From an uncultured Actinomycetes bacterium (lineage in GTDB: Bacteria > Actinomycetota > UBA4738 > HRBIN12): DNA of 64,000 nt. The notes beneath the pieces are model-generated. The model ran no database searches. It was not told the origin of the DNA and saw nothing but the letters and a program-made list of their open reading frames with translations. Location: NCBI GenBank assembly GCA_963731925.1, contig CAVSXK010000016.1, positions 65,730 through 129,729 on the forward strand, given 5' to 3'. Shown here piece after piece: positions 75 through 46,284 of this stretch (positions are counted from its first letter, which is position 1; the number at the start of each line of letters is the position of its first letter). A program made the translations under genes and the position numbers.

Positions 75-2102
75 GTGCTACCATCGCCGAGGGCTCGGCC
101 GTCGGCAGACGCGCGGGCCCCGAAGCATCTTCGAGGTCCCCAGGTTCGAAAGGAGCGCACCCCTCTGGCAACCGACCCGGGGTCGCCGTACCGCAGGCTC
201 GTCCGTGGCCCGGCGATCTACGTCGTGATCGTCCTCGCCGCGATCTGGTTGTTCGTGCTGTTCAACAGCCGCGGCGCGGCGTCCGAGCCGATGACGATCG
301 GCGAGTTCCAGGCGGAGGTTGACGCGGGGAACGTCGAGACCGCGGAGTTCCTGCTCGGCGACGGCGTGATCCAGGGTGAGCTCTCGGACGGCTCGACGTA
401 TCGCGTCGCGTACGTCGAGGCGACGCAGGAGATCGTGCAACGGCTCGAGGAGAACGGTGTCGACGTCTCGGCCGACCCGCAGAAAGGTTCGGCCCTCGTC
501 GGGTTCCTGTTCCAGCTGATCCCCGTGATCCTGATCGTCGGGGCCTTCATCTTCATCATGAACCAGTCGCAGGGCGGCGGCGGGCGCGTGATGCAGTTCG
601 GCAAGGCCAGGGCCAAGCTCGTCACCAAGGACCAGCCCAAGACCACGTTCGCGGACGTGGCGGGGGTGGAGGAGGCGATCGAGGAGCTCCAGGAGGTCAA
701 GGAGTACCTCGCCAACCCGGCCAAGTTCCAGGCCATGGGCGCGAAGATCCCTCGCGGGGTGTTGCTGTTCGGCCCGCCAGGGTCGGGCAAGACGTTGCTC
801 GCGCGCGCGGTCGCGGGTGAGGCGGGCGTCCCGTTCTATTCGATCTCGGGGTCGGACTTCGTCGAGATGTTCGTCGGGGTCGGCGCCGCCCGGGTCCGCG
901 ACCTGTTCGAGCAGGCCAAGCAGAGCGCTCCCGCGATCGTGTTCATCGACGAGATCGACGCCGTCGGACGTCACCGCGGCGCCGGCCTCGGCGGTGGCCA
1001 CGATGAGCGCGAGCAGACGCTCAACCAGCTCCTCGTCGAGATGGACGGGTTCGACCAGCGCACCGCGGTCATCTTGATGGCCGCGACCAACCGCCCCGAC
1101 ATCCTGGATCCCGCCTTGCTGCGGCCGGGGCGGTTCGACCGGCACATCACCGTGGACCGGCCCGACCTCGAAGGCCGCAAGGGGATCTTGAAGGTGCACG
1201 CGAAGGGCAAGCCGTTCGACGAGACCGTGGACCTGTCGACCATCGCGCGCCGCACCCCCGGCTTCACCGGCGCCGACCTGTCGAACGTGATCAACGAGTC
1301 GGCGCTGCTCGCCGCTCGGTGGGGCAAGAAGGCGATCTCGATGAAGGAGGTCGAGGAGGCGATCGACCGTGTGATGGCCGGTCCCGAGCGCAAGACCCGT
1401 GTGATGAGCGAACGCGAGAAACGCGTGATCGCCTACCACGAAGGCGGGCACGCGCTCGTGGCCCACATCCTGCCGAACACCGACCCCGTCCACAAGATCA
1501 GCGTCATCCCGCGCGGACGCGCGCTCGGCTACACGCTCACCCTGCCCGAGGAGGACAAGTTCCTCATGACCCGCGAGGAGCTCGCGGACGAGCTCGCGAT
1601 GCTCATGGGCGGCCGCGTTGCGGAGGAGCTGATCGTGGGGGACATCACCACCGGCGCCGCGAACGACATCGAGCGCGCGACCAAGGTGGCCCGGCAGATG
1701 GTGACCGAGTACGGGATGTCGGACGCGATCGGCCCGCAGACGCTCGGGCAGAAGCAGCACGAGGTCTTCCTGGGCCGGGACTTCCAGTCGCAGCCCGACT
1801 ACTCGGAGCAGGTGGCGTTCGAGATCGACAACGAGGTCCGCCGGATGATCGACGAGGCGCACGACGAGGCGCTCGAGATCCTGCAGGGTCATCGAGCCAA
1901 GCTCGACGAGCTCGCGACCATGCTGGTCGAGCGCGAGACGCTGGAGCGCGACGAGGTCGAGAGCTTCCTCTCGGACATCCCCAAGCGGGCCCAGCGCGAC
2001 CTGTCGGTCCGTGGCGCCGGCCTCGCGGTGTCCCGGCGAGCGATCCGGACGGGCGGACAGCCGAGCACGCCCGGCACGATCCCACCCAAGCCCATCGGCT
2101 AG
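75..2102 (+). CDS. ftsH: ATP-dependent zinc metalloprotease FtsH
   Basis: Walker A GPPGSGKT, the AAA+ second region of homology, and the HEGGHAL zinc motif are all present. Two N-terminal TM segments. The first ~40 codons may be 5' UTR; the start is uncertain. Confidence 0.93.
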
Positions 2103-42590: not shown

Positions 42591-42989
42591 ATGCTCGAGA
42601 AGCGGATCGAGATCCGTTGGCGAGACGTCGACGCCTACGGTCACGTGAACAACGCCGTGTACCTGAACTACCTCGAAGAGGCTCGGGACGCGTGGGTGCA
42701 GCAGGTCTTAGGGCGGGCCTCGGGCAACACGTGGGACTTCGTCCTGGCTCGGGTGGAGATCGACTTCAGGGTCGAGCTCACCCAGGACGACGGCGCGGTG
42801 ATCGTTCGATGCGCGCTCGACACCTTCGGCCGTTCGAGCGTTGGAACCCGCGAGGAGGTCCGAAAGCTGGACGGGACGCTCTCGGCGGAGGCACGCTCGG
42901 TTGTCGTCCCGAGAGATCCCGAGAGCGGTCGCTCGCGCCCGCTCTCCGACGCCGAGCGCCGAGCGCTGGAAGCCGAACAGGTGGGGTGA
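42591..42989 (+). CDS. acyl-CoA thioesterase, hotdog fold (4HBT/YbgC-like)
   Basis: The motif WRDVDAYGHVNNAVYLNYLEEAR is typical of this family. Confidence 0.75.
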   Translation: MLEKRIEIRWRDVDAYGHVNNAVYLNYLEEARDAWVQQVLGRASGNTWDFVLARVEIDFRVELTQDDGAVIVRCALDTFGRSSVGTREEVRKLDGTLSAEARSVVVPRDPESGRSRPLSDAERRALEAEQVG

Positions 42990-43045
42990 CGGCGCCCGGG
43001 TGGGCATGTCACCCGTAGCCTGGGCGGTCGATCGGATCGGCTCAA

Positions 43046-43315
43046 GTGGGCCCGATCGGGGGAACTCGGCGCTCCGGCACTCGGTCGGCTAGCCTGCCGA
43101 AGGTGCTGGGCGAGCTCGAAGCCGTGGTCGTCGAGGTGAAGCCGTGGGACGTCCACGGCGTGGGGTACGTGGACGTCACGGTCGTCTACCCCGACCGGGT
43201 GCTCGAGACCGCCCGGCTGGGACCCGAGAGCATCCCGGATCACCTGCAGCCGGGCGAGCACGTGATCGTGAACAAGGCGGTCAACATGATCGTGGGGATC
43301 CGGCGTCCCTCATGA
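43046..43315 (+). CDS. small hypothetical protein
   Basis: High third-position GC, ~89 aa from GTG. The stop overlaps the start of the next ORF (TCATGA). Confidence 0.45.
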   Translation: MGPIGGTRRSGTRSASLPKVLGELEAVVVEVKPWDVHGVGYVDVTVVYPDRVLETARLGPESIPDHLQPGEHVIVNKAVNMIVGIRRPS

Positions 43316-43518
43316 TCGATTGGACCTACCTCGATCGGTCCGGCGAAGAGGTCGGACGCTCGCCACGATTCCCCGACGTGGAGCAGGCCGAGGAATGGAT
43401 CGGCGCATCGTGGCCCGAGTTGCTGGAGAACGGCGTCGAGGCCGTCGTCTTGTACGACCACGGCGCTGGCCAGGGACTGGGTAGGAAGCTGTACCGGATG
43501 GCGCTCGGCCCGGAGTAG
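43312..43518 (+). CDS. small hypothetical protein (68 aa)
   Basis: Translationally coupled to the preceding ORF and has good codon bias. Confidence 0.45.
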   Translation: MIDWTYLDRSGEEVGRSPRFPDVEQAEEWIGASWPELLENGVEAVVLYDHGAGQGLGRKLYRMALGPE

Positions 43519-43534: not shown

Positions 43535-44059
43535 CTACGAGGTGGGTCCTTCTCCTCGGACCTTCTCGACCCCCGAGAGGGCTTCGCGCAGGTCCTTCAG
43601 CCATTCGTCCTGTCTCTGGGCGACCAGACGGACGCACCAGGCGAGCGCGTGGCTGCGCGAGCGCGCGACGCCCCCCTCGACGAGCGTGTCGAGCACCCGG
43701 CGCTCCTCCAAGCGCAGCCGCGTCATCGCCGGCACGCTGACGGTGGTGAAGAGCTTGCGAGCGTCCGCGCACTCCGCCCCCCACGAGACACGGCGACCGA
43801 ACCGGTGCTGCGCTTCCTGCGCGATACGCATCCGATGCTCTCGGGTGTCCTCGCGGAACCCGTCGATGCGGGCGACCCGCGCGGCCGCGGCTCCTTCGGC
43901 GGTGGCGTCCGAGGGGAGCTCGGGATCGGAGAGCGTCCCGACCACGAGGATCTCGTCGCGGTCGAAGGAGACCTGCGGCGTTCCCACGAACCAGTCGGCT
44001 GGGATCCTGCCTGCGAACCAACCGCTGAGCTCTTCGTCCGATGACTCGCGTGTGTTCAT
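43535..44059 (-). CDS. hypothetical protein
   Basis: 174 aa with high third-position GC throughout. No motif recognised. Confidence 0.5.
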   Translation of the reverse strand: MNTRESSDEELSGWFAGRIPADWFVGTPQVSFDRDEILVVGTLSDPELPSDATAEGAAAARVARIDGFREDTREHRMRIAQEAQHRFGRRVSWGAECADARKLFTTVSVPAMTRLRLEERRVLDTLVEGGVARSRSHALAWCVRLVAQRQDEWLKDLREALSGVEKVRGEGPTS

Positions 44060-44222
44060 GGACGGATGATTACACCATTACACGTAATCGTCAACCCATG
44101 CCTGGGGAATTGTGGGGCCGGGCGCCCGACGGCTCCACCTTGCTGCTGCTCGAGATGCGCTCGACGCGCCAGGGTCGAGATGGAAGGATGACAGCCGCCC
44201 GGGCTGGCCGAGATTGGGGCCG

Positions 44223-44852
44223 ATGAACCACAGCGAGTATTCGACGCGTGCCTCCATTGGAGGGATCCTGGCGATCATCGGGGGGGCTCTGCTCGCCGTC
44301 GGGTCTTTCCTCCCATGGGCGGAGGTCTCCTGGGGTGGCACGAGCGTAACGGCGCAGGGCATCGACGACTCGTATGGTTACTTCACGCTTGCCGCCGGCA
44401 GCTTTGCCCTCGTCGTCGGGATCGTGATGAGGAGGGGGGCCAAGCGGGAGCTGGCCGTCCTCGCCGTACTCGCCGGGCTCGTTGGCGGTGGGGTGGGCCT
44501 GTACGAGGCGCTGACGATCAGGGACAGCGTCCTCGACGCGGCGGCCGAGCAGCTCGCTCCGAGCTTCGAACTTTCAACCGAGCAGGTGCGGGCGGCGCTG
44601 GACCAGGCGATCGAGACCGGGCAGCTCGGCCTTTCGATCAGCATCGGGTTGTATGCGGTGATCGCAGGTGGCGTCGTCGCCCTGGTCGGAGGGATCGTGG
44701 GTCTGGGTGGTTCGCCGTCCGAGCCTGCAGCCGCCGAGACCTCCTCGGTGGCTCCGGCCGCTCCCGCGGTGACCGACGTCGGCAACGCGCCCTCCGCATC
44801 CTCGGCACCCCCCACCGCCACATCGCCTCCGGCCGACCAGGCGGGTGCCTGA
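44223..44852 (+). CDS. 4-TM membrane protein with Ala/Pro/Ser-rich C-terminal tail
   Basis: The conserved SFLPWAE block, a GIDD loop, and four hydrophobic helices. Paralogous to the next gene. Confidence 0.65.
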   Translation: MNHSEYSTRASIGGILAIIGGALLAVGSFLPWAEVSWGGTSVTAQGIDDSYGYFTLAAGSFALVVGIVMRRGAKRELAVLAVLAGLVGGGVGLYEALTIRDSVLDAAAEQLAPSFELSTEQVRAALDQAIETGQLGLSISIGLYAVIAGGVVALVGGIVGLGGSPSEPAAAETSSVAPAAPAVTDVGNAPSASSAPPTATSPPADQAGA

Positions 44853-45471
44853 GGAAGTGCAGGGACGTTCCGTCGTCGCGGGAGCGCTTGCTCTCGCTGG
44901 AGGCGTGGCCGCGCTCGTGGGTTCGTTCCTCCCTTGGGCCGAGATCACGGCCGGGCCCTTCTCGGAGCAGGCGAGGGGCATCGACGGGTGGGAGGGCAAG
45001 GCGACGATCATCGGCGGTGCGGTCATGATCCTCGCCGGGACCCGCGTCGTCCTGGGATCGCATCAAGCCATCGCTCGGTTGCGGTCTCGTGCCGCGATCG
45101 GCGGTTCGCTGGTCGCAGGGGTCGGTATCTACACCGCGCTCACCGTGAGGGACCAGCTGTTGGACGCGGCCGCGACGCAGCTGCCGAGAGCCGAGGTCGA
45201 GGGCGCCCTGGACACCGGTCTGCTCGAGCTCTCGATCGGCGTGGGGCTCTACCTCGTGATCGCCGGGGGCGCCCAGGGGATCCTCGCCGCGGTGGTCGCG
45301 ATGGGAGCCCGAGACGAGGCCCCCGCCCCGTCCGGCGCAGGCTTGCGGGGATGGTCCAGCGGCCCGGGGGACTCTCCCGGCGGGTCGGCGACGCCTCCGC
45401 GACCCGCCGTCACGGACATCCCGCCGCCACCGGGCCGTGCGCCGAACGAGGGCGGTGGCTCGACGGGGTGA
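44845..45471 (+). CDS. 4-TM membrane protein, tandem paralogue of the preceding gene
   Basis: Shares the motifs SFLPWAE, GIDG, TVRDQLLDAAATQL and LSIGVGLYLVIAGG. GTG start overlaps the upstream stop by 8 nt. Confidence 0.65.
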   Translation: MPEEVQGRSVVAGALALAGGVAALVGSFLPWAEITAGPFSEQARGIDGWEGKATIIGGAVMILAGTRVVLGSHQAIARLRSRAAIGGSLVAGVGIYTALTVRDQLLDAAATQLPRAEVEGALDTGLLELSIGVGLYLVIAGGAQGILAAVVAMGARDEAPAPSGAGLRGWSSGPGDSPGGSATPPRPAVTDIPPPPGRAPNEGGGSTG

Positions 45472-45872
45472 ACACGCAGGAGCATCGCCTCGACACGGGG
45501 GGTCGCCGGGTCCTCGACGTGACCGAACTGGTGCTGGCGTTCTGCTCGTCCGACGGGCGCGACGGTCTGGTCAACGTCTTCGTCCCGCATGCGACGGCGG
45601 GGGTGGCGCTCATGGAGACGGGCTCGGGCTCGGAGGAGGACCTCCAGGAGCTGCTCGAGCGGATCCTGCCGCGCGACGACCGCTACCGGCACCGGCACGG
45701 CTCGATCGGGCACGGTGGCGACCACCTCCTGCCGGTCGTGGTGTCTCCCTCGCTCTCGATCCCGGTGGACGGAGGCCGGCCGTTGCTCGGCACGTGGCAG
45801 CGGGTGGTCGTCGTCGACCCCAACCGGGAAAACGACGAACGGCTCCTGCGTCTCACGTTCGTGCCGGCCTGA
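45468..45872 (+). CDS. YjbQ/UPF0047 family protein (secondary thiamine-phosphate synthase-like)
   Basis: The motifs LVNVFVPHATAGV and LLGTWQRVVVVD are present. GTG start overlaps the upstream stop. Confidence 0.8.
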   Translation: MNTQEHRLDTGGRRVLDVTELVLAFCSSDGRDGLVNVFVPHATAGVALMETGSGSEEDLQELLERILPRDDRYRHRHGSIGHGGDHLLPVVVSPSLSIPVDGGRPLLGTWQRVVVVDPNRENDERLLRLTFVPA

Positions 45873-45897: not shown

Positions 45898-46284
45898 CTA
45901 CAGGTACATCCCCGGTTGACGCTCCTTGCCGTCCGGCGATGCGGATACCGCCTGGACGTCGCGCTCCCGGAGCAGCAGGCAGTCACGGCCATCGAGCTCG
46001 ACCTCGAGCCCGGCCTGGGGCAGATACAGGATCGTGTCGCCCGTCTTCGCGGTGCGTACGTCGGGTCCGACCAAGAGCACGTCGCCCCACACGCAACGCT
46101 TCGGGGCGGGTGCGGCGGTCGCGGGGATCAGCAACCCGCTCCGAGACGTGCGTTCGCCGTTGTCGGGGTTCTCCACCACGATGCGGTCGCCGGTCAAACG
46201 GATGTCGTCGGTCCTCGTCGTGTGGGAGCGCTTCTTCCGCGCCTTCGACGGGCGGGGTTTCGAGGTCTTGGCGGCGTCGGCCAT
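45898..46284 (-). CDS. GroES-family (Cpn10-fold) protein with basic N-terminal extension
   Basis: The C-terminal 100 aa align to the GroES pattern (SGLLIP...P..G.V..VGP...GD.ILY...G.E...DG.D.LLL.E.DV.AV). The rest of the 498-aa track ORF is antisense to prmC. Confidence 0.6.
   Translation of the reverse strand: MADAAKTSKPRPSKARKKRSHTTRTDDIRLTGDRIVVENPDNGERTSRSGLLIPATAAPAPKRCVWGDVLLVGPDVRTAKTGDTILYLPQAGLEVELDGRDCLLLRERDVQAVSASPDGKERQPGMYL

Follow-up and report, generated by a model that had tools for sequence, protein, structure and literature searches.

A tandem pair of predicted four-helix membrane proteins encoded with yjbQ in uncultured Actinomycetota: a divergent branch of the Trp_oprn_chp superfamily

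The window, that is, the whole stretch of 64,000 nucleotides (nt) that was analysed, comes from an uncultured Actinomycetes bacterium (contig CAVSXK010000016.1, positions 65,730 to 129,729) and carries three closely packed genes on one strand, here called A, B and C (Table 1). Genes A and B encode paralogous proteins with four predicted transmembrane (TM) helices, and gene C encodes a YjbQ/UPF0047 protein. The locus was compared with relatives from 28 species-representative metagenome-assembled genomes (MAGs) of the lineage and from two metagenome contigs. The comparison shows that 44154-45872 is arranged like an operon of three genes and includes a conserved promoter-like element of its own, and profile searches place A and B in a divergent, fast-evolving branch of the actinobacterial Trp_oprn_chp superfamily (PF09534/TIGR02234).

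Table 1. Coordinates of the genes, candidate regulatory elements and predicted structural parts discussed in the text (window positions unless given as residues).
Feature	Position	Strand	Description
Gene A	44223-44852	+	ATG start; 209-aa four-TM protein, A-type paralogue
Gene B	44845-45471, or from 44857	+	GTG start; 208-aa four-TM paralogue (204 aa from GTG 44857)
Gene C (yjbQ)	45468-45872	+	134-aa YjbQ/UPF0047 protein; GTG start
Promoter-like element of the A-B-yjbQ operon	44154-44189	+	GATGCGCTCGAC, 15 nt, TGGAAGGAT; by-eye alignment reading
Putative -35, TCGACG	44161-44166	+	followed by a 17-nt spacer
Putative extended -10, TGG AAGGAT	44181-44189	+	by-eye alignment reading
AT-rich repeat element	44066-44094	-	ATGATTAC-ACCATTAC-ACGTAATC-GTCAA; promoter-like and candidate AbmR auto-operator
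abmR	43535-44059	-	174-aa ATP-binding transcription factor AbmR (Rv1265 family); NF058631 244.9 bits against a cut-off of 160
Atypical GroES-fold (Cpn10) gene	45898-46284	-	about 128 aa; 42.6 bits on the best GroES model (cut-off 96)
Predicted helices of A	residues 3-27, 50-70, 75-115, 141-162		AlphaFold2 model
Extramembrane parts of A	residues 31-45 (beta hairpin), 119-132 (helix)		AlphaFold2 model

BLASTP aligned the products of A and B at 38% identity over 185 columns (E = 6e-28). By this measure the tandem duplication described in an earlier note on this DNA is real: the two adjacent genes encode proteins of the same architecture, and all of the motifs quoted there (SFLPWAE, GIDD/GIDG, T(I/V)RD..LDAAA.QL and LSI.(I/V)GLY.VIAGG) were found in both. 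The Ala/Pro/Ser-rich tail that had been assigned to both copies was found in A, from about residue 165, but the tail of B is Gly/Pro-rich. In addition, B is without the 10-residue insertion that A has in outer loop 2, and a GLRGWS motif is conserved in B just past TM4. An upstream extension of A from GTG 44112 (246 aa) was rejected because that frame is not kept among relatives, and the ATG at 44223 was retained as the start.

The start of B bears on how the two genes are joined. Where the junction is clean, most two-copy relatives have the start of B 2-6 nt past the stop codon of A (12 nt in two of them), mostly as an ATG, and the N-terminus of B reads MQGRA or MHGRA, which aligns with VQGRS at GTG 44857 of the window. 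With GTG 44857 as the start, A and B would be separated by a 4-nt gap instead of overlapping by 8 nt. Because the relatives' start aligns with this codon, the gap is at least as likely as the overlap. Thus, of the two overlaps reported earlier, the 4-nt overlap between B and C is secure, whereas the 8-nt overlap between A and B hinges on a start at GTG 44845 and is doubtful; A and B are tightly packed under either start. The reported excess of A/T-ending codons at the 5' end of B is present in the window, where the G+C content at third codon positions (GC3) is 0.63 in the first 30 codons and 0.87 in the remainder; for 44857-44935, the first ~26 codons of B, the values are 0.65 and, in the remaining B, 0.88. 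The B orthologues do not show this dip (mean GC3 0.84 versus 0.88), for which reason selection for A/T-ending codons at the B start was rejected, and the dip looks like a lineage-specific quirk and not a selected feature.

The placement of A and B in the Trp_oprn_chp superfamily comes from relatives as much as from the two proteins themselves. Gene A had no Pfam match, and no NCBIfam family matched A or B at E <= 1, hence neither matches TIGR02234; gene B scored 15.6 bits against PF09534 (E = 0.015) and did not reach the gathering cut-off of 29.6 bits. PF09534 was matched by 17 of 27 clade members, with a best E-value of 7.4e-7. When a profile of the clade was searched against 1.84 billion representatives, 1102 clusters (at 50% identity) were retrieved at E <= 1e-3 and 272 at E <= 1e-10, and 96 of the best 133 representatives matched PF09534 at E <= 0.01 (best E = 2.5e-12). 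Ten relatives were sampled, of which three scored above the Pfam gathering score and six just below it, all of them colinear with model positions 2-145. Furthermore, hhalign aligned the clade (A1) over 169 columns with a set of six relatives (A3: P0379, P0373 and P0347, above the cut-off at 38.6, 33.4 and 31.1 bits, and three just below it) with 99.9% probability and E = 9.6e-34, a result to be read knowing that the A3 members had themselves been retrieved with the A1 profile. Together, the PF09534 matches, the colinear above-cut-off relatives and the hhalign alignment argue that A and B are a divergent branch of this superfamily, and the membrane-protein family, which the earlier note did not recognise, can be named. 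Scored with the A3 outgroup profile, A reaches 107 bits and B 54 bits, which puts A nearer the wider superfamily. Both are actinobacterial proteins in the range of ~180-250 aa with four predicted TM helices.

The match leads to an uncharacterised family and not to a well-characterised one, which in the view of the earlier note would have removed the interest of the pair. Our literature search found no functional study of PF09534, whose mentions are lists or an example of variable AlphaFold confidence. The Mycobacterium tuberculosis member, Rv1610, lies in the trp operon. No trp genes were found within 6 kb of the locus in the window, where the neighbours are GroEL, a NIL-domain gene, a thioesterase gene, abmR, yjbQ, a Cpn10-like gene and prmC. 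Two other superfamily members (L042 78-746 and L043 2459-3142) lie beside malate/lactate dehydrogenase (mdh) and isocitrate dehydrogenase (icd) genes, with no yjbQ or trp genes. Since these contexts occur besides those of trp and yjbQ, the superfamily has at least three recurrent genomic contexts. Three Streptomyces loci (L034, L036 and L037) were set aside as uninformative; they hold weak relatives outside trp operons and without a Pfam match. The Joint Genome Institute label 'FtsH-binding integral membrane protein' on two homologues was also discounted, its sole support being a Bax1-I match (E = 0.007) in one of the 133 representatives. Two unusual architectures were seen. P0360 has an N-terminal zinc ribbon and a Pro-rich linker before its four-TM unit, and P0299 (539 aa) consists of two complete tandem four-TM units with ~70 aa of Pro/Glu-rich cytoplasmic linker between them. 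The second of these begins with Met, and the protein would be either a real fusion of a separate tandem duplication or the product of a lost stop codon.

Gene C scored 88.5 bits against PF01894 (cut-off 27) and, marginally, 69.4 bits against TIGR00149 (cut-off 67.75), in agreement with the earlier assignment of the third gene to YjbQ/UPF0047. Its closest solved relatives are the structural-genomics entries 2P6H, 1XBF, 1VE0 and 1VMH (E = 8e-14 to 5e-4), annotated merely as hypothetical. In crystal structures YjbQ is a trimer. Neither a thiamine pyrophosphate riboswitch nor a thi context turned up anywhere in the window. The TGA stop of B and the GTG start of C overlap by 4 nt (GTGA), and such an xTGA overlap recurs at 22 of the 25 distinct two-copy loci and at the single-copy locus L029. 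The order A-B-YjbQ, or four-TM-YjbQ, was found in 26 of the 28 MAGs, the contigs of the other two ending first; the arrangement, whose conservation in other actinobacteria had been left as a check, is therefore kept in related uncultured Actinomycetota.

The pairing extends beyond the A and B clades. Four outgroup relatives (P0379, P0391, P0393 and P0394; 31-38% identity to A) are each directly followed by yjbQ and a convergent Cpn10-like gene; three of the four carry a precomputed PF09534 match, and P0379 scored 38.6 bits in our own scan. Their upstream context differs (ArsP permease, NAPRTase and M23 peptidase, with no abmR), and acyl-CoA dehydrogenase genes are inserted downstream. In addition, yjbQ follows a frameshifted four-TM gene outside the A and B clades in L035. 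Because the outgroups and L035 keep yjbQ and the members beside mdh and icd are without it, the pairing belongs to one subfamily only, predates the A/B duplication and outlasts the rearrangement of its flanks. These comparisons provide good but not conclusive evidence of a functional coupling between the four-TM proteins and YjbQ, since every example comes from one related organism group.

Homologues of A and B were found in metagenomes and MAGs only, labelled Actinomycetota or uncultured Actinomycetes, many of them from soil surveys. In a neighbour-joining tree the A clade and the B clade are separate. Only an A-type gene is present in L022, L025 (with a B remnant) and L029, only a B-type gene in L030, and both in L028. 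The two clades and the single-copy genomes indicate that the duplication is older than these genomes and that either copy can be lost. The ratio of nonsynonymous to synonymous substitution rates (dN/dS, Nei-Gojobori) was 0.12-0.48 for the core of A, 0.16-0.33 for the core of B and 0.08-0.27 for YjbQ, so that conservation and coding signal, whose absence in relatives would have removed the interest of the pair, are both present. The tails gave 0.08-1.35, above the cores in 7 of 9 A/B tail pairs. These ratios point to clear purifying selection on both cores and to tails that are usually under looser constraint. The A and B orthologue groups share 22 invariant columns. The tails vary except for short motifs, among them P(P/N)(D/E)xGG, or something close to it, at the C-terminus of many proteins in both clades.

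Kyte-Doolittle hydropathy gave four hydrophobic segments each in A and B, and together with the charge distribution it upholds the four-TM architecture described for both copies. The loop between TM2 and TM3 is basic, with RRGAKR in A and four Arg in B. Outer loop 1 has no Lys or Arg in A and two in B. From this charge distribution and the positive-inside rule, both proteins are predicted to be N-in/C-in, with loops 1 and 3 outside. The conserved outer motifs SFLxWAE, GxDG, Y-A-T-x-(R/K)-D and LDAAA lie in the two outer loops, at the outer ends of TM1 and TM3 or beyond them. Within the TM helices of the A/B alignment no charged or polar residue was found to be conserved; the invariant intramembrane residues are glycines, and the conserved intrahelical glycines are G20, G21, G59, G85, G90, G142, G149 and G150. 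The tails past TM4 are low-complexity, Pro-rich and disordered in both proteins, and cytoplasmic by predicted topology.

An AlphaFold2 model of A, built on an alignment of 27 sequences, had a predicted local distance difference test score (pLDDT) of 71 and a predicted template modelling score (pTM) of 0.51. In this model TM1 is followed by an outer beta hairpin, TM2, a long TM3 that protrudes from the membrane, a short outer helix, TM4 and a tail that is disordered from about residue 165. The best fold matches of the model are non-transporting tetraspans, with weak Foldseek E-values of at least 0.04. For B the model was of poor quality (pLDDT 64.9, pTM 0.35, all-helical), and only generic helix bundles matched it; this led us to reject it as a confirmation of the fold. 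A family-profile sequence search of the PDB found no solved homologue.

The promoter-like element of the operon moves with gene A at a fixed 15-nt spacing, even where abmR is distant. Its -10 variants TGTCAGACT, TGCCACACT and TGGAACACT retain only the TG, A2 and T6, which is why it is read as an extended -10. From its position we infer a transcription start near 44195, a leader of ~28 nt and a weak Shine-Dalgarno sequence. A mini-ORF, ATGGAAGGATGA, was rejected because its frame is not kept in relatives and its conserved bases suit a -10 region. No RNA element was found in the spacer or leader: at the Rfam gathering cut-offs the only match was one tRNA elsewhere in the window, permissive Rfam matches were noise, and RNAalifold gave the leader -0.84 kcal/mol with almost no covariation.

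The surroundings of the operon are also conserved. In most of the 28 MAGs and in the two metagenome contigs, the upstream order on the plus strand is GroEL, a NIL-domain gene, a thioesterase gene, in some genomes an NlpC/P60 gene, and two small ORFs, and the order continues with abmR (-), A-B-YjbQ (+), the Cpn10-like gene (-) and PrmC (+). The Cpn10-like gene has a basic N-terminal extension (MADAAKTSKPRPSKARKKRSH...) and scores far under all NCBIfam GroES cut-offs. At every locus examined it converges on yjbQ, and it is the only other neighbour kept by the four-TM-yjbQ pair in the outgroups; it may be part of the same module. The two small ORFs (43046-43315 and 43315-43518, plus strand; 89 and 67 aa, abutting stop to start) had no Pfam or NCBIfam match and are kept across the lineage at 52-93% and 58-74% identity, respectively; relatives of the 67-aa ORF at 40-47% identity also occur in the outgroup loci L038-L040. 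In most relatives an NlpC/P60 peptidase gene on the minus strand (e.g. L001 3570-4829) lies between the thioesterase gene and the first small ORF. It is absent from the window (42989-43046) and from a few relatives (L010, L014 and L017).

Gene abmR is divergent from A in the window and in most relatives, and elsewhere it is 0.5-4.4 kb off or absent. The abmR-A spacer, 163 bp in the window and 124-163 bp in most loci, contains two separately conserved elements. The AT-rich palindromic site reported just upstream of A lies exactly at 44068-44094, as had been stated, and is unique in the window (0.01 expected by chance). Its minus-strand sequence is TTGACG, 17 nt, TG-n-AATCAT, a promoter-like -35/-10 pair facing abmR that would put the start of transcription on or right beside the abmR ATG (at about 44059) and hence imply a probably leaderless mRNA. 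It also has ATTAC repeats, two of them direct and one inverted, with an 8-nt period (ATGATTAC, ACCATTAC, ACGTAATC), and is conserved beside abmR in about 25 genomes. In nine loci in which A is 0.5-4.4 kb from abmR, the element is still 8-18 nt (usually 8-12) from the abmR start. Because it stays near abmR where A is distant, the comparison assigns it to abmR, as its promoter and a candidate AbmR auto-operator, and not to the four-TM operon, to which the earlier note had attached it. In M. tuberculosis, AbmR represses itself and activates the divergent small RNA (sRNA) gene mcr11 from a shared, unusually AT-rich operator that contains four octamer repeats (ATGN5) as well as ATTA(A) repeats (bioRxiv 10.1101/2021.09.03.458936), and the window element is like that operator in its AT-richness, 8-nt repeats and ATTA-type repeats. 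With abmR and A divergent across a short spacer, this likeness would suit a different reading, in which the palindrome is the operator of the four-TM operon and the operon is the AbmR-activated divergent transcript in place of mcr11. We consider that reading unlikely, as in the nine loci A retains its own promoter-like element with no ATTAC motif, the outgroup loci have four-TM-YjbQ and no abmR, the AT-rich element coincides with a promoter-like pair facing the other way, and the spacer has no match among the Rfam sRNA families. AbmR may additionally modulate the four-TM operon at loci where abmR adjoins it.

As to function, the most likely explanation, which we put forward tentatively, is that A and B are a non-catalytic membrane scaffold that works with YjbQ. 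It is based on the residue pattern, the parallel topology, the tetraspan-like model, the single-copy genomes and the two-unit P0299, an independent polypeptide that supports a tendency of family units to pair. A and B would pack laterally via their Gly-rich helices into homo- or hetero-oligomers and, on the extracytoplasmic side, expose a small conserved surface to the cell envelope, and their cytoplasmic tails would hold or regulate a cytoplasmic partner, for which the co-translated YjbQ is the best candidate. They would act like claudin/TARP-type tetraspan auxiliary subunits and not as a transporter or an enzyme. Two tandem four-TM paralogues beside an enzyme-like gene, in a conserved arrangement for tight co-expression, could also be a small two-subunit transporter similar to those of the small multidrug resistance (SMR) family, moving the substrate or product of YjbQ or, given that the family was named after its trp-operon association, a tryptophan-pathway metabolite; two copies make 8 TM helices, sufficient for a small carrier. 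This is improbable, however, since the TM helices have invariant glycines and no conserved charged or polar residue, A and B share one predicted orientation unlike antiparallel SMR pairs, and no SMR or other transporter family appeared in the Pfam or NCBIfam scans. In addition, both proteins have structured outer loops and twice the length of an SMR protein, the best fold matches of A do not transport, and single-copy genomes exist. Somewhat less doubtful, although still unlikely, is that the linkage to yjbQ is inherited synteny only, with A and B as fast-evolving envelope proteins unrelated to YjbQ and the overlap a product of compact high-GC packing. Four-nucleotide overlaps are common in Actinobacteria, the YjbQ-linked loci are all from related uncultured Actinomycetota that share synteny over a wide stretch between GroEL and PrmC, the four-TM proteins diverge much faster (31-76% identity) than YjbQ (64-88%), and relatives occur in other contexts without YjbQ. 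However, the four-TM-YjbQ pair persists with a wholly different upstream region and with downstream insertions, it persists after loss of either paralogue, and the xTGA overlap is kept at a synonymous divergence (dS) of 0.3-0.9, where synonymous sites are heavily substituted.

Several observations weigh against a scaffold of A and B working with YjbQ. Neither a characterised homologue nor an experiment supporting any function was found in our searches, and PF09534, like YjbQ, is uncharacterised in physiological terms. The YjbQ-linked loci all fall within a single related group of uncultured Actinomycetota in which YjbQ is 64-88% identical, and the two family members that adjoin mdh and icd do so without yjbQ. 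Given the single-copy genomes, an A/B heterodimer cannot be obligatory. The claudin-like fold is a lead from a single medium-confidence model of A, the model of B being poor, and the operon promoter was read by eye and not called by a consensus scanner (AAGGAT matches 3/6). Finally, the apparent B-YjbQ fusions P0180 (334 aa), P0274 and P0382 were rejected, as their Arg-rich out-of-frame linkers indicate frameshift read-through; L009 (6622-7626) and L011 show a similar B-to-yjbQ read-through, consistent with a 1-nt indel. Such fusion-like proteins probably arise from single-base indels in long-read MAG assemblies and are unfit as evidence of fusion. A bolder form of the scaffold proposal, in which the whole Trp_oprn_chp superfamily would be prokaryotic scaffolds of the claudin/PMP22/TARP fold and an A/B hetero-oligomer would tether or gate YjbQ via the tail motifs, seems to us a long shot.

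If the claudin-fold scaffold were real, it would provide a bacterial counterpart of the fold, bear on the origin of the claudin/PMP22 fold, and give the orphan YjbQ family a first physical partner. Both PF09534 and YjbQ/UPF0047 are widespread, uncharacterised families, and their conserved, translationally coupled pairing offers each of them a hypothetical partner that can be tested. That these tetraspans act as oligomers is suggested by the A/B pair and by the two-unit polypeptide P0299. In addition, the ATTAC element beside abmR, present in about 25 genomes, gives a comparative handle on the AbmR operator, hitherto described only in M. tuberculosis.

Compared with known systems, A and B are closest to Trp_oprn_chp. 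Like its members, they are uncharacterised actinobacterial four-TM proteins of ~200 aa with Pro-rich tails; they are colinear to model positions 2-146 (3-146 for B, 2-145 for the relatives) and share the motifs GSFLxWA, DG, Y-x-x-T-x-(K/R)-D and G(L/I)Y-V-I-x-GG. They differ in being sub-threshold, in lying outside a trp operon, and in forming a conserved paralogue pair translationally coupled to yjbQ. To our knowledge, the claudin/PMP22/TARP tetraspan fold is known only from eukaryotes, and no report of a prokaryotic claudin-like fold was found in the literature. Unlike claudin, PMP22, TARP gamma and MP20 proteins, A and B lack cysteines and the W-GLW-C-C signature, outer loop 1 is much shorter (two strands) and outer loop 2 is mainly helical; no PMP22_Claudin model matched in the Pfam scans of A and B, the clade or the representatives, and the fold match of A was not repeated with the model of B. 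The claudin likeness is one of predicted fold and not of membership, a lead and not a result. The paired SMR proteins EbrAB and YkkCD are also encoded by two adjacent paralogous four-TM genes with a possible heterodimer as product, but A and B are without the membrane Glu (TM1 has no acidic residue), have 209 and 208 aa instead of ~110, are predicted to be parallel and not antiparallel, and have no Multi_Drug_Res Pfam match. Gene C resembles Escherichia coli YjbQ/UPF0047 in passing both PF01894 and TIGR00149, and differs in its translational coupling to a membrane-protein gene, for which we found no counterpart in the literature searched. Taken together, these comparisons identify A-B-yjbQ as a divergent, duplicated, YjbQ-coupled variant of a named uncharacterised family and not as a new kind of system.

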